From: Spirochaetia bacterium
GTDB taxonomy: Bacteria > Spirochaetota > Spirochaetia > WRBN01
NCBI GenBank assembly: GCA_965249825.1
Contig: CBDFMW010000002.1
Coordinates: 98,644 to 162,643 of the forward strand
Length of the DNA stretch: 64,000 nucleotides
Reading direction: 5' to 3'
This document shows, in pieces, positions 10,846 through 41,676 of this stretch. Both the position numbers and the translations under genes were made by a program. Position 1 is the stretch's first letter; each line of letters starts with the position of its first letter. The notes beneath the pieces were generated by a model. It was not told the DNA's origin and did no database searches. It saw nothing but the letters and a program-made list of their open reading frames with translations.

Positions 10846-12207
10846 TTATTCAGGGGCTTTGCCCCATCGATCCATCAGTAGGTAAGCAGTATCTACTAGG
10901 TTTACCCAATGAGATAATTGGAGGTTTTCAAGTTGTTCCTTGGTTCCCCCTTTTTGAAAGAACACTGCTAAAAGAGTAGGGTGATCTTTTTTTGCTTGCC
11001 ATCTTGTTGCTGATGTTTGCTCATTATCATTAGTCTTTTGCATCAGATGTAATAGTTCCGCTTGACTAAAAAAAGACATAAAAGGTGCAATTAATGTTGA
11101 GAATTTTATGGTGGCTTCATCCCAGTTTCTACTATGACTATAAAGGCGAGTGAGTACTTCATGTAAAATAATAGTTAGATTAACCTCTTGAGCTTGCACA
11201 TAGAGAATCTCTATCACTTCAGGACGGATGTTTGTAAAATCATATTCTGTCGGTATTTGTTCAAAATGCTCTTTTAAGTTGGATGCTAAAAATGTAGCCA
11301 CAAATGCTCGATCCAAACGAGGTATTCCTCGATATTGTGTCTCGTTGACAAATAGTTTAATCATATTTTTAATATTCTCAGGAAAAGCATGATACAGATG
11401 ACTTAAATGACAACCCAATAAGGTTATAGCGTACTCTTTGCCATAGACATCAGCTTCTTCGATAAATCTTGTGTAATAGCCAAGCTCGCTTTCCATGAAC
11501 TCTACGCACCAACTCCGCCGTTCGGGTTTGCTAAGCAGATGGAATAGTGAGGCATAATAAATGGCTCGATGAGGGTGAATGTCCTCATCGGTAGGGTGAA
11601 TGACAAATTTCCATAAAGCCCTAAAAATAGTTTTGCAAGATGTTTTGTCTAGCCGATGAAAATATCTGTTGTCTAAATAGGTAGCAAGCGTTTTTCTGTC
11701 TGCCAACTGTCTGCTTTTTGCAGCCAAGTCTTTAACCATTTTGTCCACTATTTTTTTGGGAAGCATAGCGGGTTTGAGCAAAAGTTCTTCGAGGGCGTTA
11801 CGCAGAGCCGCTCTAGCTTCTTCTTTAGTAGGCTGAAACAAAACCAGCTCGTCAGATAAACTAGGATGGGCACACCTATTACGATCACTGCGAATGCGTT
11901 CTAATCGTTCTTTAGCCTGTCCTTGCAGAATCCAGCCTTTTTCAAGTAAGGTCTTCTCCCATTCCATCGATTCCTTGTGGCTTTTAACCGCCTCCAGGTC
12001 GGCTAAGATTTTTTTGGCTGTGTCATCCCCTTCAAAATCACTTAAATGTTGCAATTTAAACACAATATCGCATAAAATCACCGTCCACAGTGAAACAATC
12101 ATGGCACGGTAGTTTCCTGAAGTGTAAGAGCTATACACTTCTTTAAAATATTCACGAGTTTGAGCTTGTGAGATTTTTTCCATAACTTCTTCTAGGTCAA
12201 ACATCAT
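10846..12207 (-). CDS. HEPN-domain (Rx4H) Abi-like protein
   Basis: 453 aa; N-terminal helical domain with RIRSDRNRCAHPS (R-x4-H HEPN motif, aa 109-114). Confidence 0.55.
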   Translation of the reverse strand: MMFDLEEVMEKISQAQTREYFKEVYSSYTSGNYRAMIVSLWTVILCDIVFKLQHLSDFEGDDTAKKILADLEAVKSHKESMEWEKTLLEKGWILQGQAKERLERIRSDRNRCAHPSLSDELVLFQPTKEEARAALRNALEELLLKPAMLPKKIVDKMVKDLAAKSRQLADRKTLATYLDNRYFHRLDKTSCKTIFRALWKFVIHPTDEDIHPHRAIYYASLFHLLSKPERRSWCVEFMESELGYYTRFIEEADVYGKEYAITLLGCHLSHLYHAFPENIKNMIKLFVNETQYRGIPRLDRAFVATFLASNLKEHFEQIPTEYDFTNIRPEVIEILYVQAQEVNLTIILHEVLTRLYSHSRNWDEATIKFSTLIAPFMSFFSQAELLHLMQKTNDNEQTSATRWQAKKDHPTLLAVFFQKGGTKEQLENLQLSHWVNLVDTAYLLMDRWGKAPE

Positions 12208-12209
12208 TA

Positions 12210-13418
12210 TTACTCTTTAGCCGACCACAGGGCATTCATCACCAAAAAAATGCTCTCTTGCACGGTGATATGGTCATTCATCTGCAATAAATAGATCTCT
12301 GTGGTTTCAGGTGAACTGTGGTGTGTGGTGAAACAGTGTGATACCATGCACGGATTAATTAAAATTTCAAGACCATCTAGTAAATGTAAGGAGATAAACA
12401 CTTTATCTTTATGACTAAAAAAGGCCTTAATATGGGACCAACTCTCTTTTATAGGAGTGGGGTGTTTTCCGTCTACAAAAAAGAGACTTAAGTAGGGATT
12501 AGGCGATCCATAAGTATTATAGCCCTGTTGCACCACACTCACTAGATCAAGGTTTACCAAAATATCTGTGTGTAAAATGTGGTGTAGCCTAAGAAAATTG
12601 TGTTCTAAAGATAAAAGGGAGGTGAAATAACTTATATTGTTCACTACCGCTTGCGTGTGCTGCACGCCAATAAAATGAAGTAAAGCCCCACCCGTTCCCA
12701 ATAACGGGGCGAGTGGTTCAATAAAGGTGATGAGTTGAGGATTAACCCACAATAATACATCATCTTGATAAGATTTTGGCTGAACAAGAGATGTGCCACG
12801 TAACTTTAACCAAGTGTTTTCAATAAGGCTAGGGGACGCGGACACCAGCGGTGCTTTTAGTGAGACATCGGTAAAGTGTAAAAGGTTTTTTGGGATAGAG
12901 TCATTGCCGACTGCACTTACGGTATGATTTATTGAGAGTTGAGTGGCTAAAGAAAACCCCAGTAAACAGAGCTCTTGTGAGTGCAATAGAGCTATAGAAC
13001 AAGGTATTCTCTGTTGTTGTAGATAAAGATTAAGCGAGTTCAAATCTTGTTTAATGTAAAGAAAATGATTTTGATAGGCCATTACTAACTGCGTATGCTC
13101 ATGTATCACGTCTGTTCTAGAATTTCTTTGGTAGCTTGTAATGCCCAAACTCATTAAACTAAAATTAACTAGAGCAAGGTTATTGTCTATGGTTGTCAAC
13201 TGAATAAAGGCAGGCACTTGCTCTTTAAAAAGAGTACAGAGAGATGAAAATGACTCTTTAACCAAGATTTGGGCATCACGATTGGTAAAGGTGATAAGAC
13301 TAAGCTCCTCTATTTCTCCTGAAAGGTGATTTTGCTGGTAATGTGGTATTACCACCGTGCAAGAGGCAGGATTAATCATCAATATGCCTAATGTCATGCT
13401 GTTTAATGGAATAAACAT
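12210..13418 (-). CDS. hypothetical repeat-motif family protein (402 aa)
   Basis: LALVNFSLMSL, LLWVNPQLITFIEP, LEILINPCMVSHC motif copies. Confidence 0.55.
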   Translation of the reverse strand: MFIPLNSMTLGILMINPASCTVVIPHYQQNHLSGEIEELSLITFTNRDAQILVKESFSSLCTLFKEQVPAFIQLTTIDNNLALVNFSLMSLGITSYQRNSRTDVIHEHTQLVMAYQNHFLYIKQDLNSLNLYLQQQRIPCSIALLHSQELCLLGFSLATQLSINHTVSAVGNDSIPKNLLHFTDVSLKAPLVSASPSLIENTWLKLRGTSLVQPKSYQDDVLLWVNPQLITFIEPLAPLLGTGGALLHFIGVQHTQAVVNNISYFTSLLSLEHNFLRLHHILHTDILVNLDLVSVVQQGYNTYGSPNPYLSLFFVDGKHPTPIKESWSHIKAFFSHKDKVFISLHLLDGLEILINPCMVSHCFTTHHSSPETTEIYLLQMNDHITVQESIFLVMNALWSAKE

Positions 13419-21363: not shown

Positions 21364-21861
21364 CTAAAAGCGTTTGCCTTCACGAGCTATGCTGATTTTC
21401 ACATCACGCTCTTTAATAGTTTCGCGCTTATCATACAGCTTTTTACCCCGTGCCAAGCCCAACAAAACTTTTACTTTGTTACCTTTAAAATAAAACCGCA
21501 GAGGCACGAGGGTGATGCCTTTCTCTCGCACTTTTTTGTACAATTTTACTATCTCGTCATGGTGGGCGAGAAGCTTGCGGGGGCGGTCGGTCTTGTGGTT
21601 AAACATGTTGCCTTGGTCATAATGTGAGATGTTGAGCTTGTAGATGTAGAGCTGATAGTCAGCACTCACTTCGCAGTAAGAATCGACAAAATTCATTCGC
21701 CCTGCTCGCAGACTTTTCACCTCGGTACCTGCCAGCACAATGCCACACTCAAGCTCGCTGAGTATCTCGTAGTTAAAGCGTGCTTTTTTGTTGTCGCCAA
21801 TGGTTTTAGTAGCGGTGTTAAGAGAGCCTTTTTTGGCAACAGGCGGTTTTTGTTTAGACAT
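21364..21861 (-). CDS. smpB: SsrA-binding protein SmpB
   Basis: ARFNYEILSELECGIVLAGTEVKSLR ... LVPLRFYFKGNKVKVLLGLARGKKLYDKRE. Confidence 0.9.
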   Translation of the reverse strand: MSKQKPPVAKKGSLNTATKTIGDNKKARFNYEILSELECGIVLAGTEVKSLRAGRMNFVDSYCEVSADYQLYIYKLNISHYDQGNMFNHKTDRPRKLLAHHDEIVKLYKKVREKGITLVPLRFYFKGNKVKVLLGLARGKKLYDKRETIKERDVKISIAREGKRF

Positions 21862-23358: not shown

Positions 23359-24108
23359 ATGAGATGTTTGGCGTATAATGGCGGTGGAAGGGGTAAGAAA
23401 GGCGTGTTAGAAAGTATATTAAATTTTATTAGTGATATAGCCAATGAAGGGATGCGGAGCGAGTCTGCTCAAGTGCTGTTTTGGGGCATGACCGGCTGGG
23501 TGGGCTACTGGTTTGCTTATCATGGCTTTACCAAACCGAAAGGTTGGGCAATGTACACGGCGTGGTTCATTTATAGTTTGCCTTATTTAGTCATACGAGG
23601 ATTAAGAAATGAAACGACTGAGGTTCCTAAAGAGTTGCTGGCATGGGCTTTACTGATTAGCATTGTTATGGGAATATTTTGGGCGAGATGGGGACGTGAT
23701 TGGTTATCAGCCCTTCTTCGCATGTTTGGCATAAGTAATGAAACAGGGCATGAAAGGTTACTTGATGATATTGCAAAAGCGAAAACAGGTGATATTGAAA
23801 TAGAGTTACATGATGGTACGACTTTTTTTGGAGCTATACAGCCCTATGATAAGGAGTATGTTTCTAGCGGAACGTTTGATCAGGCTGGAAATATCTGTCT
23901 ATATGTGGAAGAAATCAATGGACGTAAACAAGCAATTCTAGAGAAGCATGTTACGCTTACCTATGTGCCAGAGAGAGAAATAAAACTTATTAGATTTATA
24001 AATTCAAAAAAAGAAGAAACCAATCTAGCTAATTTTTTTCTATACGTAGGGAAGAGCAACATATTTTGGCTGGGATTATATCTCATTTTATGGTTTCTGC
24101 TCTTTTAA
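23359..24108 (+). CDS. hypothetical membrane protein
   Basis: 249-aa ORF with several hydrophobic helices. Confidence 0.4.
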   Translation: MRCLAYNGGGRGKKGVLESILNFISDIANEGMRSESAQVLFWGMTGWVGYWFAYHGFTKPKGWAMYTAWFIYSLPYLVIRGLRNETTEVPKELLAWALLISIVMGIFWARWGRDWLSALLRMFGISNETGHERLLDDIAKAKTGDIEIELHDGTTFFGAIQPYDKEYVSSGTFDQAGNICLYVEEINGRKQAILEKHVTLTYVPEREIKLIRFINSKKEETNLANFFLYVGKSNIFWLGLYLILWFLLF

Positions 24109-26728: not shown

Positions 26729-26766
26729 AATGGGTAAGTCTCCAGCAAGGTAGAGGGTGAAAAGAA

Positions 26767-26838
26767 GCCAAAACTGGGAATTGAACCCAGGACCTACTCG
26801 TTACGAGTGAGTTGCTCTACCGCTGAGCTATTTTGGCG
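26767..26838 (-). tRNA. tRNA-Thr (anticodon CGU)
   Basis: Cloverleaf on minus strand: acceptor GCCAAAA/UUUUGGC, T-loop GGTTCAATTCC, anticodon loop CU-CGU-AA; one A.C mismatch at 31-39. Confidence 0.75.
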
Positions 26839-27815
26839 TATAACCCCTTCACCATAAAATATAACGCTCTTTTTGTCAAGGGGAAAGGTTTTGGTTGACT
26901 AACGACTAAATGTTTTTTGATTTCATCATAGACTATAGCAGGAAGAGCGGTTTTAGTGAAAGCTTTATCTAGTTTCTTAGTTTCATTCTTTTGAGCCTTT
27001 TCTAATTTTTCAAAGGAGGATTGCAAGTAAGGTGATTTTTTACTTATTTTTTGCATAGCATCAAAAATCGATTGTAAAGATCTGGTGTTCTTCGCAAATC
27101 TTTCACCGTATATGCGTTGATTGTGAGCACAGTGATTTCTTAGTGTAGAGAATGCCCACAAATCCTTTTCGAGTTTTTTTATATCTTTGTTTAGGTGTTT
27201 TGTGTTTTTGGGTTGACCTAGAAGTACAACGATGTTTTCTTTTAAGTCCTGCGGTAAAATTTGGTAGAACTTACTGAGTTTGCCAAATGTAAGTTCATTA
27301 ACCAATATCCATATCGGAACATAACCATGATTTTTTGGATCGAGATAGTGGGTTATATAGGGGATTTTTGTTCTGCTATTTTTAATTATAGTCTGAAATT
27401 CTTTAATTACCTCTTTTGTTTCTTTATCTGTAGGATTAGGATAGTTCTTCGGGTCGCAAAAAAATGTGTCTTTATAGCTGTCGTGCGCATGATTCTTAAA
27501 GTAGTGAGCCACTTGATAGCCAATGATATTTTTAAGAAATGCTTCAATATATAGCAACTGGGTTAGGTAGAGTTTACGCAAAGCACCATCAAATTGATAG
27601 AGGGTATGGATTTGAAAGAGTGATGTTCCTGTATGATATTGGTTCGTACGAGTATCCGCTAGAAATGGTTTACCAAAGGAGTTAATGAGCGTGTAGTAGT
27701 TACATTGTTTTAAAATAGCTAAATCAAAGTTATAATTTTTGGGTATCCCTGATAGATTCCGTTTGTAAAGCTGTTTTAGTTGCTCTTCATGAGTTAACGG
27801 AGGTTTTTCTGCCAT
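26817..27815 (-). CDS. Abi_2 family (AbiD/AbiF-like) abortive-infection HEPN protein
   Basis: 332 aa; hallmark STLRNHCAHNQRIY (R-x4-H) and Abi_2 N-terminal helical region; 3' end overlaps tRNA-Thr 5' end. Confidence 0.8.
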   Translation of the reverse strand: MAEKPPLTHEEQLKQLYKRNLSGIPKNYNFDLAILKQCNYYTLINSFGKPFLADTRTNQYHTGTSLFQIHTLYQFDGALRKLYLTQLLYIEAFLKNIIGYQVAHYFKNHAHDSYKDTFFCDPKNYPNPTDKETKEVIKEFQTIIKNSRTKIPYITHYLDPKNHGYVPIWILVNELTFGKLSKFYQILPQDLKENIVVLLGQPKNTKHLNKDIKKLEKDLWAFSTLRNHCAHNQRIYGERFAKNTRSLQSIFDAMQKISKKSPYLQSSFEKLEKAQKNETKKLDKAFTKTALPAIVYDEIKKHLVVSQPKPFPLTKRALYFMVKGLYAKIAQR

Positions 27816-28362
27816 TTATATCAAACCTCCTTATCGAGACAAAAAAAACATCCCGATTTTCAAGAGGTTATCTTGAAGGATAAGGATGTCCCCACCAAAT
27901 TCATGGTGTCTCTTATCTTAAGTATAGCCTAAATAGGGCAGGGTGTCAAGCATGGATTCTGTAAGAATCTAATAAACTGGTTGTGAGGGGTGGAAGACAA
28001 GCTAGACGAAATAGTGTACACTCTTTATAATTTGAACGCTGAAGAACGAGCGGTGGTGAGTGGGGGGCGGAGCTGATGGGTGGGGAGTTGACAAGCGTGC
28101 TTAATTAGCGTATCATTAGGGTGGAAGGATTTTGGTTACTGCATGTTAAGTTTTATTCTTAATGAATAAGAGGGAGATGCGTTTTGAAATCCGGATTCTT
28201 TAATATATAATATTAAAATGACGGATTTTAGAATTAAGAACGAGGCTAAGTAATATTGGTCTTTAAGCAAGGTAGTTGAGAAACACTATTGGATTTACTG
28301 GGTTCAACACGGTAACAACAAAAAATCTCTATAAGACAAAGCCCGCCTTTTGTGGGCTGTTG

Positions 28363-29181
28363 TCATGTGTGCCTTAATCCATCATTTAAATAAATGTTCA
28401 CATGACTTGCCTTGATGCGTACTTTTTCCTGTGTTCTTCCATTGAAAAAATCGCTATCAATATTTCCATCACTTTCTATTTGCACATCATAGTGATGACC
28501 TGCACCGTAACGATACCCAAAGCGATAGTGACCACTTAAATAGTAATGAGCGGAATCGGTAGACTTGTTGTTTAAGTCCCCATGCTTGTGGTTACCATAA
28601 AAAAATAGGCGTTTCTTACGATCCTGATACCCTTCCTTTTTAGCTGAGTTTGCCTTGACAAATTTAAAAGGATTGGCTATCGTAGGATTTAACTCTTCTT
28701 TGCCGAGATACACAGCCTTTAGGTGTGCTTCAAAAGCAAAGCCATTTATTTTTTCGTCAAAATTTTTGATTGGCAATAAGTAAACGTGATTATTTCTTAG
28801 TTGCTTCGCTCGTATGTTGTACTCCACAGCTTTTGATATAGCCGTAGACCATAACTCCTCATTTCTATAGTGCTCACTAGATAGTGGTTCTATAGAGCGG
28901 ATAGAGGCAAAAGGAAAAAATAACTCTAACAAAACATCGCAATTCGCATCCTTGTGTTTTACATAGATAAGCTGAATAAACTTGTATGTATGTCTTTTAA
29001 CAAGAGGCAAGAGTAAGTCTTTAAAATACTTATTAATAGGTTCTACGGTGTATTTCGGACTAATTTCATTTACTGGCATAAAAGCAAAATCATGATTTGG
29101 ATGTTTTTTTTCTACTGCCTCAGGTAATTTAACACAGAGTGTTTTATTTAGCCCTGCTACAATAACTAACGTTTTAGCCAT
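28363..29181 (-). CDS. hypothetical protein (AT-rich islet, downstream gene of 2-gene module)
   Basis: 272-aa ORF, markedly lower GC than flanks, 3 bp after upstream ORF stop; hairpin terminator at ~28337-28360. Confidence 0.5.
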   Translation of the reverse strand: MAKTLVIVAGLNKTLCVKLPEAVEKKHPNHDFAFMPVNEISPKYTVEPINKYFKDLLLPLVKRHTYKFIQLIYVKHKDANCDVLLELFFPFASIRSIEPLSSEHYRNEELWSTAISKAVEYNIRAKQLRNNHVYLLPIKNFDEKINGFAFEAHLKAVYLGKEELNPTIANPFKFVKANSAKKEGYQDRKKRLFFYGNHKHGDLNNKSTDSAHYYLSGHYRFGYRYGAGHHYDVQIESDGNIDSDFFNGRTQEKVRIKASHVNIYLNDGLRHT

Positions 29182-29184
29182 TTG

Positions 29185-29640
29185 CTATTTATGCTCTCCC
29201 AGCAAACTCTCTATCAGCCATACTGGAAGTTGTTTATCCTTATGTTCACTGGGGATACGGTCAAGCACTTTTTGTAATAAAGAAACATCGTGAGCCTTTT
29301 TCTTTGTTTTGACAGAACTTGGCACACTCATTTGATTATCAGTGCCATTTAAAAGTTCGTCTATGCGTGTTTCGTCCTCGTCTTTGGCAACGGCAATAAC
29401 TAGAGGGTTACTGTTTGCATGAACAAGTTTTTTTAAAAATGTATGTTCTTTGATTTTATCTTTAAGCTTCTCTTCGCCTAAAAAATCATCTAGGGAATGT
29501 TTTCCATATTCAGAAATCAATCTATTTCCAAGCTCTGCCGCCAATAGAACTTTAATGGGTTTTCCATCTTTGTTGTATTTATCACTATTGTAAAGCTTTT
29601 CTGTAAACCTTCTGAACTTTTCGATATTTAACTCACTCAT
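29185..29640 (-). CDS. hypothetical protein (AT-rich islet, upstream gene of 2-gene module)
   Basis: 151-aa ORF, Lys/Glu-rich. Confidence 0.5.
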   Translation of the reverse strand: MSELNIEKFRRFTEKLYNSDKYNKDGKPIKVLLAAELGNRLISEYGKHSLDDFLGEEKLKDKIKEHTFLKKLVHANSNPLVIAVAKDEDETRIDELLNGTDNQMSVPSSVKTKKKAHDVSLLQKVLDRIPSEHKDKQLPVWLIESLLGEHK

Positions 29641-29963
29641 TTATCTTTATCCTTTTTATCTAAAATAATCCGATCTTACTTTATCATCATTAGGAGGTTA
29701 TGTCAAATCTTCATGAGATATATGGTATACTATAAGATATATAATACACTTAATAACCAAGGATATAAGAACATGACACTTTTAAAATGGCTATTGAAAC
29801 CATTCCGTAAAGAAGAGATGCCGGCTGAACTCTGCGATATTTCAGCAAGCTTAACTGCTTTTGCCGAGGCTCATCCTGAGGTTTTAAAACGTTCTAAGGA
29901 GATTGGCGAACGGTGGATGAGAGAAAGTCAGAAAAGCTAGACTTACGGTAGGAGAGGGCGAAC

Positions 29964-30404
29964 ATGACATACAAAGCCATTATTTGGTTAGAGAGCAACG
30001 GGACCTACAGCGTGATGTTCCCAGATTTTCCCAACTGCTTTAGCATGGGTGATAACCTAGCCGAAGCACGGCACTATGCCCATGAAGCACTCGATTTGCA
30101 TTTAGAAGACAACCCTGTCAAGGGTTTTGCTCGTCCATCGCTCACGGTGAATAAAGACGCATTAGGGGTAGCCTCCGAGTATAGCGAAGTGTGTGATATC
30201 AAAGTGAGCAAGAACAAGGCGTTTGCTCTTAAATTGCGTTGGTTACGCCAAGATTTAGGGCTAACGCAAAAGACCCTAGCCGAGTTGTTGCATATCGGTT
30301 TATATGCCTATCAACGCCTAGAAAACCCTCGATTAAGCAACCCTACCATGAAAACAATCGAACAACTAGAAGCGGTGATTCACCAAGAGTTGGTTACTGT
30401 TTAA
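29964..30404 (+). CDS. HicB-family antitoxin-like protein with C-terminal XRE-type HTH
   Basis: N-terminal YSVMFPDFPNCFSMGDNLAEARHYAHEAL (HicB/UPF0150 fold); C-terminal LRWLRQDLGLTQKTLAELL HTH. Confidence 0.65.
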   Translation: MTYKAIIWLESNGTYSVMFPDFPNCFSMGDNLAEARHYAHEALDLHLEDNPVKGFARPSLTVNKDALGVASEYSEVCDIKVSKNKAFALKLRWLRQDLGLTQKTLAELLHIGLYAYQRLENPRLSNPTMKTIEQLEAVIHQELVTV

Positions 30405-37098: not shown

Positions 37099-38644
<1,546 letters not shown>

Positions 38645-38799: not shown

Positions 38800-41676
38800 A
38801 TGAGAGAGGATAGTATGGATAAAAATGTAGGGCTATCGACTGAAGAGATTTTGAATAGCAGGCAAACGAATGGATCTAATCTTTTAACGCCAGCCAAAAA
38901 CCCATCATGGCTGTGGCTTTTTTATCAAAAATTTGATGATCCCATTATTCGTATTTTACTCATTGCTGCCTTCATATCTATAGGCGTTGGCTTTTTCGAT
39001 GGTCACTTTATGGAAGGCATAACAATCATTATTGCGATTTTGATGGCAACTGGGGTGGCTTTTGTCAATGATTTGGGGGCTCAACGTCAGTTTGATGCCC
39101 TCACACTAATCGCAAGTGATGTTCTGTATCGGGTTTTACGCAATGGGGTTCATACCGAGATTTCAAAAAGTGAAATTGTTGTAGGTGATATTCTTTTTTT
39201 AGAGCGCGGAGCTGAGATTCCTGCTGATGGTGTTATTTTAGAGGTGCAAGCAGCTCTTGTGAATGAGGTCGCCCTTACTGGTGAATCTCAAGCCGTAGTT
39301 AAATCAATAGAAGAGCTACTAACTAAAAAAACAGCTTTGTCCTCAAATAAGGTCTTTCGAGGGACACACATTGAAGAGGGATCGCTTTCTATGCGCGTAG
39401 AAAAAGTAGGGGATCAAACATACATTGGGCAGTTAGCTACGCTCACGATGCAGGACAGCGAAGTAGAAACCCCACTCAATAGGCAACTAACGGGGCTGGC
39501 CAAGGCGATGAGCGTTATTGGTTTTTCGAGTGCAGGTCTTATTTTTGGCTTGCTAATTGCTCGTGATATTAGAGAAGGCTTTATTATTTTCCCTTCTCAC
39601 GCCCAATGGTCGGCATGGCTGGTGTTTTTTTTAGGCTTGGTCGTGTTTGCCCCAGTATGGTTAGCTATTTTAGCCGATCTTCTTGAACTCATTTCTCCTT
39701 TATCTACTTCAAAATACCAATTTTTTCGGATAACAAGTTTTAAAAGAGGGTTTTTTCTTGTTATCCTTATGGTCACTCTCGTCGTATTTTCGATTTTCTA
39801 TGTTGCCTTTATAGATAGTTTAACCCTAATTGAAGCGGTACAATACTTAAAAAGGGGCGTTGTGGATGCTTTTAAGGGGAGTAATGGCCTTCAGCTTTTA
39901 GAGCATTTTATGGTGGCGATGACTATTTTGGTGATGGCTGTACCGGAGGGTTTACCCCTCAGTGTAACTTTGGCACTCTCCTACAGTGTTAAATCTATGC
40001 TGCGTGGAGGTACTTTAATTCGCCACATGCATGCTGCGGAAACATTAGGGGCCGTTACAACTATATGTACTGATAAAACAGGCACACTTACGCAGAGCAT
40101 AATGAGCATGAATCACGCCAGTCTTACTGCTAGCGATGAAATGGGCTGGGTGTGCTTGGCTGTTAATAGTACGGCAGATTTGAGTCATGATATGGGAATT
40201 ATCGGTAATCCAACTGAAGGAGCTATCCTTGTGTATATTAATAAACACTTGGGCTTAGATTATGATGAGCTGCGTCGCCGTGCCACTAACATTAAGCAAG
40301 AACCCTTTAACTCTGATCGTAAATATATGGCATCATCTTTTAGGGTTGATGGGCTTGACATTGTTACCATTAAAGGTGCCCCTGAAGTGGTATTAGCTCG
40401 TACTACTGTCACCGATGAAGTGAAAGAGTGTTTACTTGCCGAAATAAAGCAGTTTCAGGCTAAAGGTATGCGTGTGCTAGGTATCGCTTATAGAGATACA
40501 ACTAATGAGGCTGGAACTGTGTTGCGTAACATGAGCAATTTACTATGGAAAGGATTTATTGTATTGAGTGATCCCTTAAGAAGTGAGGTTCCTAGCACAA
40601 TAAAAGTCTGTCACAAAGCAGGAATTGATATTAAAATGGTTACAGGAGATAATCTAGATATTGCAGTCGAGATAGCAAGACAGGCCCATATTTTACCGCA
40701 TGACTTCACTTTTGATATTGATACGCGCGCAAGAGTGAAGGAAGGATCGGTATTGACAGGAGTAGAGTTTGCCGGATTATCTGACGCTGAAATCTTGATT
40801 TTATTAGAAGAAGGTAAGCCACATGTTGTCGCACGATCGACACCACAAGATAAAATGCGTTTGGTTACGCTTCTTCAAACTTCCGGTGAAGTAGTGGCGG
40901 TTACGGGTGATGGTACAAATGACGGCCCTGCGCTTAATCATGCTGATGTTGGTGTGGCGATGGGACTCACAGGCACGGCTATTGCAAAAGAAGCAGCTGA
41001 CATTATCATAACTGATGACAGTTTTGTAAGTTTGCAACATGGCATTTTGGGTGGACGTAGTTTATATTCAAATTTACAACGTTTCATTTTATTTTTACTT
41101 ACCATAGGAATAGTTGCACTGCTTTTGGTGGTTATAACCAGCTTTTTGGGGTGGTTTTTACCCTTAACGGTGATTCAAATTTTATGGATTAACATAATGA
41201 TGGACAGTTTTGCCGCACTGGCCCTATCTACTGAGGCAGTTGATCCTCATGTGATGGATAACCCCCCAAGAAACAGTAGTACGTTCATTATTACACCACA
41301 GATGGCGATTGAAATGGGTCTAATGAGTGCAGTTATACTGGCTCTTGCCTTGTTTTTTATGCAGAAATATGGCAGTCAACCATCGCTTCTTCAATTGACC
41401 TTATTTTTTAATATTTTTTCTTTTAGCCAGATTTGGAATTTAATTAACGTACGTTATTTTAATCGAAACATAGGGGATATGAAAGAATTTCTAAAAAACC
41501 CTATGTTTACAATCATTTTAATTATAATAATTACTGGGCAATGGATGATAACCCAGTGGGGCGGGTTGACCTTACGAACCACCCCGCTAAACCTTGAGCA
41601 GTGGTTTTTTGTGATTGGCATCACATCCCCAATTTTTATCATTCGAACTCTAATTCGAGTGGTTTTTAAGCGTTAA
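38800..41676 (+). CDS. P-type (P2, Ca2+/cation-transporting) ATPase
   Basis: DKTGTLT phosphorylation motif, TGES, VAVTGDGTNDGPAL, 8-10 TM segments; true start possibly Met at 38815. Confidence 0.9.
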   Translation: MREDSMDKNVGLSTEEILNSRQTNGSNLLTPAKNPSWLWLFYQKFDDPIIRILLIAAFISIGVGFFDGHFMEGITIIIAILMATGVAFVNDLGAQRQFDALTLIASDVLYRVLRNGVHTEISKSEIVVGDILFLERGAEIPADGVILEVQAALVNEVALTGESQAVVKSIEELLTKKTALSSNKVFRGTHIEEGSLSMRVEKVGDQTYIGQLATLTMQDSEVETPLNRQLTGLAKAMSVIGFSSAGLIFGLLIARDIREGFIIFPSHAQWSAWLVFFLGLVVFAPVWLAILADLLELISPLSTSKYQFFRITSFKRGFFLVILMVTLVVFSIFYVAFIDSLTLIEAVQYLKRGVVDAFKGSNGLQLLEHFMVAMTILVMAVPEGLPLSVTLALSYSVKSMLRGGTLIRHMHAAETLGAVTTICTDKTGTLTQSIMSMNHASLTASDEMGWVCLAVNSTADLSHDMGIIGNPTEGAILVYINKHLGLDYDELRRRATNIKQEPFNSDRKYMASSFRVDGLDIVTIKGAPEVVLARTTVTDEVKECLLAEIKQFQAKGMRVLGIAYRDTTNEAGTVLRNMSNLLWKGFIVLSDPLRSEVPSTIKVCHKAGIDIKMVTGDNLDIAVEIARQAHILPHDFTFDIDTRARVKEGSVLTGVEFAGLSDAEILILLEEGKPHVVARSTPQDKMRLVTLLQTSGEVVAVTGDGTNDGPALNHADVGVAMGLTGTAIAKEAADIIITDDSFVSLQHGILGGRSLYSNLQRFILFLLTIGIVALLLVVITSFLGWFLPLTVIQILWINIMMDSFAALALSTEAVDPHVMDNPPRNSSTFIITPQMAIEMGLMSAVILALALFFMQKYGSQPSLLQLTLFFNIFSFSQIWNLINVRYFNRNIGDMKEFLKNPMFTIILIIIITGQWMITQWGGLTLRTTPLNLEQWFFVIGITSPIFIIRTLIRVVFKR

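Follow-up and report, generated by a model that had tools for sequence, protein, structure and literature searches.

A member of an unnamed two-gene family, linked in related loci to a structured RNA, in a mosaic defence-gene hotspot beside a spirochaete tRNA-Thr gene

The 64,000-nt stretch of a Spirochaetia genome analysed here (the window) contains, between the promoter of a tRNA-Thr(CGU) gene and a block with a hicB-like gene and thyX, a small defence-gene hotspot without an integrase (26889 to ~29770). This hotspot is a mosaic, made up of three or more pieces that each have their own history, viz. a cassette with an Abi_2 abortive-infection gene, the scar of a type IIG restriction-modification gene, and a pair of open reading frames (ORFs) encoding 151 and 272 amino acids, ORF151 and ORF272. 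As a ‘tRNA island’ the locus is ordinary, and its interest lies in where these two ORFs lead, namely to an unannotated module of two proteins (plus RNA) found in mobile elements and defence islands. Profile comparison places ORF151 and ORF272, as a divergent member of the ‘short-A’ type, in a conserved gene pair without a name, in which a protein termed A is encoded directly upstream of a protein termed B and which, in most loci with a long A, is accompanied by a structured RNA. Two apparent ‘orphans’ are thus placed in a defined and widespread, still unnamed family.

Conservation of the A–B gene pair

An exhaustive HMMER search of cluster representatives returned 27 distant homologues of ORF272, which are 24–36% identical to it and mostly full length (265–295 amino acids). 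In the contigs of seven of these homologues the upstream neighbour encodes 218–264 amino acids in five, 148 in one and is cut by the contig end in one, and none of these neighbours has a Pfam match on record. Sub-alignment scans added 80 metagenomic and four viral loci, and wherever a distinct intact B gene has 700 bp or more of sequence upstream, an A homologue is its immediate upstream neighbour (51 of 51), at gaps of −4 to +20 nt.

ORF272 matches a leave-one-out hidden Markov model (HMM) of the B family over its full length with an E-value of 3.9e-52. Of the 18 positions at which at least 90% of 65 members agree, it retains 17, including G10, L136, P137, N140, F141, D187, F193, H200, R220, G222, H230, N262, N266 and D267. 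ORF151 scored 22.7 bits against an HMM of six long A proteins, a value reached by none of 2000 shuffles (maximum 12.2), and it matches the N-terminal (22–83) and C-terminal (184–220) parts of the profile in order, skipping ~100 amino acids in the middle. Against a leave-one-out HMM of 44 A proteins it ranked first of 570 six-frame segments of the window, with an E-value of 3.2e-5 compared to 0.6 for the next. ORF151 is thus a short A, and proteins of this short form (135–170 amino acids) are found repeatedly in prophage loci and on IncF plasmids.

The B proteins have an alpha/beta-looking N-terminal region and a C-terminal region of ~90 amino acids in which certain His, Arg, Asp and Asn residues vary little or not at all, and where the motifs E-x-HG, YRFG, G-x-H-x-D-V-Q and H-x-N-I-Y-x-N-D are found. 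Readings of these motifs as PLD-like (HxKxxxxD for ‘HxNIYxND’), HNH, 2OG-oxygenase or ART were considered and none was adopted, as no test supports them. The best PDB matches were to an azoreductase ‘LPxxNF’ strand, at an E-value of 0.14, and, for the middle domain of A (profile positions 119–182, missing in ORF151), to the RNA-hairpin-binding domain of histone stem-loop binding protein (SLBP), at an E-value of 0.075. Both are at chance level and leads only, the second being worth a mention solely for the co-occurrence of the middle domain with the linked RNA described below.

An earlier note on this DNA had described two ORFs without recognisable domains and proposed them as a novel defence or toxin–antitoxin (TA) pair. 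The lack of a known domain holds, and the proposal remains a plausible one, but the ORFs are not orphans: the note missed their distant homologues, the strict pairing and the RNA that is mostly linked to it. Neither ORF is a core gene or has housekeeping homologues, which the note had named as the outcome that would speak against it. Members of the family in Escherichia coli, Klebsiella, Sphingobium and Maridesulfovibrio are labelled ‘hypothetical protein’ in RefSeq (2026), and no paper citing the E. coli accessions WP_023304028.1/WP_023304027.1 was found in the literature collection searched.

A structured RNA linked to long-A loci

In long-A loci the DNA downstream of B at first sight offers a ‘third gene’. 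This candidate was rejected, the ORFs in question being low-complexity readings across a conserved RNA gene of ~230–280 nt, which lies on the strand opposite to B (convergent) and consists of a promoter-like start, a multi-hairpin body and an intrinsic terminator that abuts the B stop codon at a median gap of 14 nt. The RNA body in one clade holds an invariant ‘GACCGGCTGGGACGTA’, and for 17 sequences RNAalifold gave 67 pairs, of which 20 show compensatory changes. The clade nearest to ORF272 has a version of the RNA that differs in sequence appearance; in ten sequences of this clade, in an alignment that had been fitted to the model, 47 pairs were 92.3% paired compared to 41–49% in slid controls, 23 pairs had changed on both sides, and none of 500 shuffles reached any of these measures.

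A covariance model built from this second clade alone recovered elements of the first (L122 at an E-value of 3.6e-5, L097, L179, L158, L150, L096 and L115), and since its matches coincide exactly with the places found independently by nhmmer, the two versions belong to one RNA family. Of 43 distinct long-A loci, 41 carry the RNA according to the joint model, compared to one of six short-A loci, so that its presence correlates with that of the middle domain of A, a co-occurrence which suggests that the middle domain may handle the RNA. No match to the RNA was obtained in Rfam 15, by blastn against plasmids or, using the invariant 21-mer, in a viral scan. A covarying RNA that is absent from RNA databases and linked to a protein pair is a candidate for a new RNA-dependent toxin–antitoxin or defence mechanism.

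Mobile settings of the pair

The A–B pair is mobile cargo of plasmids, integrative and conjugative elements (ICEs) and prophages, often though not always among defence and TA genes. Examples are conjugative plasmids of clinical isolates, i.e. an IncFII plasmid of E. coli (L178, NZ_CP019904.1) and an IncFIB plasmid of Klebsiella pneumoniae (L180, NZ_CP100310.1), which carry the pair WP_023304028.1/WP_023304027.1 between a transposon or insertion sequence (Tn3/IS110 in E. coli, ISKpn21/IS110 in Klebsiella) and the Gabija and AbiTii genes (GajA, E-value 0; GajB, 1e-251; AbiTii, 4.6e-37), with a DUF1778/GNAT TA pair also nearby in the Klebsiella record. Between these two records the pair does not differ, and all 15 Enterobacterales matches gave the same alignment values; it was found in two of 5426 complete E. 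coli genomes. These IncF copies make the pair directly testable in E. coli.

Elsewhere, the pair lies between AbiEi/AbiEii with an integrase and MobF on pTK1 of Sphingobium, in Maridesulfovibrio (L087) on a tRNA-Ser island that also encodes an integrase and a relaxase, in a conjugative element with TraI, TrbL and VirB4, beside a DrmMI/type IIG enzyme (L083) and, in prophages, next to genes for lysis or for the tail sheath/tube. When 139 neighbour proteins were scanned together, ParA, RepA, LmuB, AriA-like ATPases and methyltransferases were also found. By tblastn there was no match for ORF272 in plasmids or for a prophage B protein in phage genomes, a viral scan with alignment A7 was likewise negative, and a tRNA downstream of B was looked for in the relatives and not found.

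Considering these settings, the pair, with or without the RNA, might be an addiction module of plasmids and other mobile elements, acting by post-segregational killing with no anti-phage role. Its frequency on plasmids, ICEs and integrative islands near relaxase, ParA and RepA genes would fit such a role, as would a two-gene operon layout like that of TA systems and the fact that 14 of the 19 carrier plasmids are conjugative. The pair is, however, also present in defence clusters (with AbiD and a restriction-modification remnant in the window, and elsewhere with Gabija/AbiT, AbiE or type IIG genes) and in prophage moron positions. We therefore think addiction alone unlikely, though worth keeping in view, and the two roles are not mutually exclusive.

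A different service to the mobile element, such as a role against defence systems, in RNA processing or regulation, or in becoming established after transfer, rather than anything of toxin type, seems quite improbable. Such a role could be read into the position of the pair next to relaxase genes in three independent elements and into the conserved, complex RNA, which points to a ribonucleoprotein more than to a plain antitoxin; on pTK1, however, the pair is found beyond mobF, on the 3′ side of that gene, and not beside a likely leading region of the origin of transfer (oriT), and it also occurs in chromosomal defence clusters without an integrase, such as that of the window.

Comparison with known systems and proposed function

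Among known systems, the long-A loci are reminiscent of type III TA systems (ToxIN, CptIN, TenpIN), in which a conserved non-coding RNA likewise accompanies the gene of a protein effector in mobile or defence contexts. Unlike these, the A–B loci encode two proteins, their RNA is a single multi-hairpin molecule rather than a tandem repeat array, and it runs convergently from downstream, whereas type III RNAs are encoded upstream of the toxin gene in the same orientation; in the window, no tandem repeats were found between 26700 and 30000, and there is no similarity to ToxN-type proteins (PADLOC negative).

Convergent antisense RNAs that overlap at the 3′ end are known from type I TA systems such as txpA/RatA and bsrG/SR4 of Bacillus, where the toxins are small membrane peptides and the RNAs act by base pairing. 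The RNA gene of the long-A loci is similarly convergent with a protein gene, with which it shares a terminator region, but B is a protein of ~280–330 amino acids, a second protein is always there, and the structure of the RNA body is conserved beyond the overlap. With type II TA systems and two-gene Abi modules (AbiE, Gabija-type islands) the pair has in common a small upstream and a larger downstream gene, translationally coupled and found as mobile cargo in defence islands. It differs from them in that A and B contain no recognisable antitoxin DNA-binding or toxin domain and have no match in PADLOC v2.

The most likely function of the A–B pair, judged from its layout and company, would be that of a TA-like or abortive-infection module. 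A and B would be translated from one transcript, and B would be an effector of enzyme type, as suggested by the conserved motifs of its C-terminal ~90 residues. A, together with the RNA in long-A forms, would either hold B inactive or sense infection; phage attack or loss of the mobile element would lead to loss or titration of A or the RNA, release of B and arrest of the cell. What A, B and the RNA are proposed to do here is conjectural, as is any effect against phages. Taken as a whole, the explanation that the locus is a mosaic defence hotspot without an integrase, whose A–B operon acts in this manner, stands in our judgement at about an even balance. A further-reaching and more doubtful view, to which we give appreciable but minority weight, is that the A–B pair and its RNA together represent a conflict system of a new, RNA-containing class. 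In such a system a ribonucleoprotein, formed by binding of the A middle domain to the RNA, would control B, a new enzyme, or guide it, and the short-A, RNA-less forms (in the window, prophages and the Klebsiella/E. coli IncF plasmids) would be streamlined derivatives.

Several results weigh against the TA-like or abortive-infection reading. In a word-indexed search of 5.8 billion proteins ORF151 and ORF272 each matched only themselves, leaving no close relative for a test of purifying selection. There was no significant Pfam match for 28 B and 45 A proteins, no PADLOC v2.0.0 match for ORF151, ORF272 or any of the 28 B proteins, and no NCBIfam or PHROGs match for ORF151 and ORF272, the two family members compared with these databases. 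PDB profile searches with alignments of 28, 65, 7 and 45 sequences gave chance-level matches at best, and single-sequence AlphaFold2 models of ORF151 and ORF272 were unusable, at a mean confidence (pLDDT) of 36 and 47. Many of the 139 neighbour proteins are encoded by housekeeping or mobile-element backbone genes, and the neighbourhood survey is qualitative. Further points concern the window copy itself, which could be inactive: ORF151 lacks the middle domain of A, C248, conserved in 95% of members and the only position lost, is Gly in ORF272, and no credible copy of the family RNA was detected in the window spacer by three covariance models (R1–R3, filters off) or by nhmmer, the best covariance match in the window search (10.1 bits, E-value 0.03) being antisense inside ORF272.

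These last features, and the deleted restriction-modification gene next door, which shows that the hotspot erodes genes, would suit a decaying, non-functional remnant of an A–B–RNA module. We regard decay as improbable: both ORFs are full length and have promoter-like and terminator-like sites, nearly all of the conserved B positions are kept, and RNA-less short-A pairs recur naturally in prophages and on IncF plasmids of clinical isolates. The spacer also contains a strongly folding stretch of 243 nt, at −63.2 kcal/mol compared to −47.0 ± 4.3 in shuffles (z −3.76; 0 of 200), which is preceded by a promoter-like site immediately after the stop codon of the restriction-modification scar and ends at the hairpin beside the ORF272 stop. 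In position, orientation and size it agrees with the family RNA of related loci, and the spacer may thus encode a non-homologous or highly diverged RNA, for the present a candidate.

Mosaic history of the site beside tRNA-Thr

The history of the site was read from two metagenomic contigs, L001 and L002, which were retrieved by a search with the neighbouring TatD protein; scanning metagenome contigs for exact matches to the tRNA gave none. Their TatD proteins are 88–89% identical to that of the window, both have the order AHSA1–TatD–hydrolase–tRNA-Thr, and the sequence of the tRNA is identical in all three; the next-nearest TatD relatives, beyond the genus, are from metagenome-assembled genomes of Spirochaetia at 42–47% identity. 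In L001 the tRNA promoter ‘ttgtcaaggggaaagg’ (window to 26888) runs almost straight into ‘aatctaataaactggttgtgaggggtgg’ (window 27966–27993). The ~1.07 kb missing there, comprising the Abi_2 gene, its promoter-like site and its leader, is therefore an indel.

Beyond this cassette, the spacer holds the last codons of a plus-strand gene, which match PADLOC model REase_MTase_IIG PDLC03612 at positions 1221–1245 of 1247 (E-value 0.0074), and whose best tblastn match is the extreme C-terminus of a 1124-amino-acid N-6 DNA methylase. At the same site L002 has a plus-strand gene of which at least the 5′ end is kept, the first 139 residues matching DUF7149 (1.1e-17) and this fragment matching PDLC03612 at positions 16–118 (E-value 2.3e-7). 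The two match opposite ends of the same model at the same site, and the spacer of the window thus holds the 3′ scar of a type IIG gene. Compared to MmeI/Eco57I-like type IIG enzymes, whose model it matches at the extreme C-terminus, the remnant amounts to ~2% of the gene, with no complete polypeptide of nuclease, methyltransferase and target recognition domain (TRD), and is a pseudogene scar. The site is accordingly in three different states in three related genomes.

The site was put together from three or more pieces, each acquired on its own. An Abi_2 (AbiD/F) gene for a HEPN-type toxin, with its own promoter and structured leader, is inserted 9 nt upstream of the −35 hexamer of the tRNA promoter, its reading frame being closed solely by a TAG inside the tRNA; the type IIG gene has been deleted except for its last 29 codons; and the ORF151–ORF272 operon, with its own promoter and terminator, forms a separate cassette. 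The locus thereby offers a base-pair view of the turnover of a defence hotspot without an integrase beside an essential tRNA, including insertion, deletion to a scar and an Abi ORF that ends in the tRNA.

The earlier note had suggested that the same stretch is an island integrated at the 5′ flank of the tRNA, a reading that was not supported. A classical genomic island inserted site-specifically at tRNA-Thr would share with the locus its low-GC accessory DNA beside a tRNA gene, and in Maridesulfovibrio the A–B pair does sit on a tRNA-Ser island with an integrase. In the window, however, no integrase or recombinase ORF or domain was found between 26.8 and 29.8 kb (ORF list, Pfam), and no direct repeat of the tRNA sequence (attL/attR-type) flanks the stretch, which lies upstream of the tRNA promoter and not at the tRNA 3′ end, leaves tRNA and promoter intact and the same as in the relatives, and has the piecemeal content described above. 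Site-specific integration is, on these grounds, scarcely credible here.

A second variable spot is present 2.5 kb to the left, where the window has a plus-strand ORF of 249 amino acids (23359–24108; GC 0.39) with no Pfam or PADLOC match and L001 (L001:321–1202) has an Mrr-type restriction endonuclease beside the same AHSA1 gene.

The Abi_2 gene and its leader

The Abi_2 ORF matches Pfam PF07751 (E-value 1.9e-36), PADLOC AbiD (2.1e-44) and the PHROG ‘abortive infection resistance’ (3.4e-47), and its HEPN motif is intact, R226-NHCA-H231 (27123–27140) fitting Rx4-6H. The best plasmid match of the protein is from the spirochaete Entomospira. The final 21 nt of the ORF are the first 21 nt of tRNA-Thr (AKIAQR and stop, GCC AAA ATA GCT CAG CGG TAG), in line with the overlap of ~20 nt previously reported, and the promoter-like site of the tRNA, with its −35 hexamer at 26879–26874, also falls within the 3′ end of the ORF. 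The overlap arises because the cassette, lacking a stop of its own, ends 9 nt upstream of this hexamer and the frame continues for 23 codons, so that the last 23 codons and the stop come from resident tRNA-promoter and tRNA DNA, a feature that sets the gene apart from known Abi_2/AbiD/AbiF genes; no tRNA-targeted integration is needed to explain it. There is no terminator between the Abi_2 ORF and tRNA-Thr, and if RNase P were to process read-through transcripts at the 5′ end of the tRNA, the Abi_2 mRNA left behind would have no stop codon. Such a non-stop mRNA would be a substrate of transfer-messenger RNA (tmRNA), and smpB is located at 21364–21861 of the window.

The Abi_2 leader can form a hairpin followed by U8 (27889–27841), or an alternative fold in which the Shine–Dalgarno region is paired (−28.3 kcal/mol, z −2.37). 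In AbiF/RCd22 of Clostridioides difficile and in the 5′ untranslated region (UTR) of AbiD1 of Lactococcus, a terminated upstream RNA controls and neutralises the toxin (PMC12373285). The window leader resembles these in architecture only, having a promoter ~100 nt upstream, a structured leader and a terminator-like hairpin before the ribosome-binding site (PMC12373285), and unlike AbiF it has no detectable Rfam abiF motif, which was absent at E-values up to 10.

Layout and base composition of the locus

The features of the locus are listed in Table 1. Base composition was compared over 46 genes of the window, and the Abi_2 gene, ORF272 and ORF151, at a GC content of 0.347, 0.358 and 0.355, are the three lowest (z about −3), the other 43 being at 0.457 ± 0.035. 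Composition is normal on both sides, i.e. in the hydrolase and TatD genes to the left and the hicB-like gene and thyX to the right. The much lower GC of the ORFs relative to the flanks, which the earlier note had pointed out, is thus confirmed gene by gene, and so are the same-strand arrangement of the two ORFs with a 3-bp gap and the terminator hairpin of their own; the broader claim of foreign accessory DNA of defence type is likewise supported. The 547-bp spacer, which the note had called AT-rich and non-coding, has the stated length, but it is less AT-rich than the genes around it, and it is not empty, because the Abi_2 promoter and leader, the restriction-modification remnant and the strongly folding stretch lie inside.

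Table 1. Features of the tRNA-Thr locus (window positions) and examples of the linked RNA in other loci
Feature	Position	Strand	Remarks
tRNA-Thr (anticodon CGU)	26766-26837	-	ARAGORN; Rfam 68.5 bits; resident gene
tRNA promoter-like site	26851-26879	-	TTGACA-17-TATGGT; block conserved in alignment of relatives
Abi_2 ORF	26817-27815	-	332 amino acids
Abi_2 cassette	26889-~27960	-	~1.07 kb; in window, missing at same site of L001; window matches L001 to 26888 and again from ~27961
Spacer	27816-28362		547 bp; GC 0.39
Abi_2 leader	within 27816-27949	-	~100 nt; ends at AAGGAGG ribosome-binding site
Abi_2 promoter-like site	27949-27921	-
Short block	27961-27993	+	common to L001 and, more loosely, L002; there upstream of plus-strand restriction-modification gene
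Type IIG restriction-modification remnant	27987-28076	+	last 29 codons and stop: GVEDKLDEIVYTLYNLNAEERAVVSGGRS (stop)
Candidate convergent RNA	28088-28362	+	promoter-like TTGACA-17-TATCAT (28088-28116), then 243-nt fold; no detectable homology to family RNA
Terminator-like hairpin	28339-28360	-	-14.1 kcal/mol, z -2.74; T-rich tail follows; directly past ORF272 stop
ORF272 (B)	28363-29181	-	272 amino acids
ORF151 (A, short form)	29185-29640	-	151 amino acids
Promoter-like site of ORF151-ORF272 operon	29678-29706	-	TTGACA-17-TAAAGT with TG
55-amino-acid ORF and HicB-like antitoxin with helix-turn-helix (HTH) domain (right flank)	29773-30404	+	Pfam HicB_lk_antitox 1.9e-10, HTH_3; GC 0.45
Linked RNA, examples	L148:1663-1944, L119:2303-2462, L087:8899-9056, L179:6539-6683	-	plus >40 other loci

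The right flank is resident or older DNA and marks the right edge of the low-GC stretch. The 55-amino-acid ORF that precedes the hicB-like gene (29773–29940) has no match to HicA or to any other entry in Pfam or PADLOC. A 19-bp tandem direct repeat (29713–29750) is present in the divergent promoter region common to the hicB-like side and the ORF151 operon.

Farther away in the window, a complete 16S rRNA gene lies at 37100–38639 and is followed by an ORF of 958 amino acids that begins at 38800; a whole-window Rfam scan found no 23S gene after it, and the rRNA genes appear to be unlinked in this genome. Two neighbouring minus-strand genes at 10846–13418 have a GC content of 0.39, ~2 standard deviations under the window mean.

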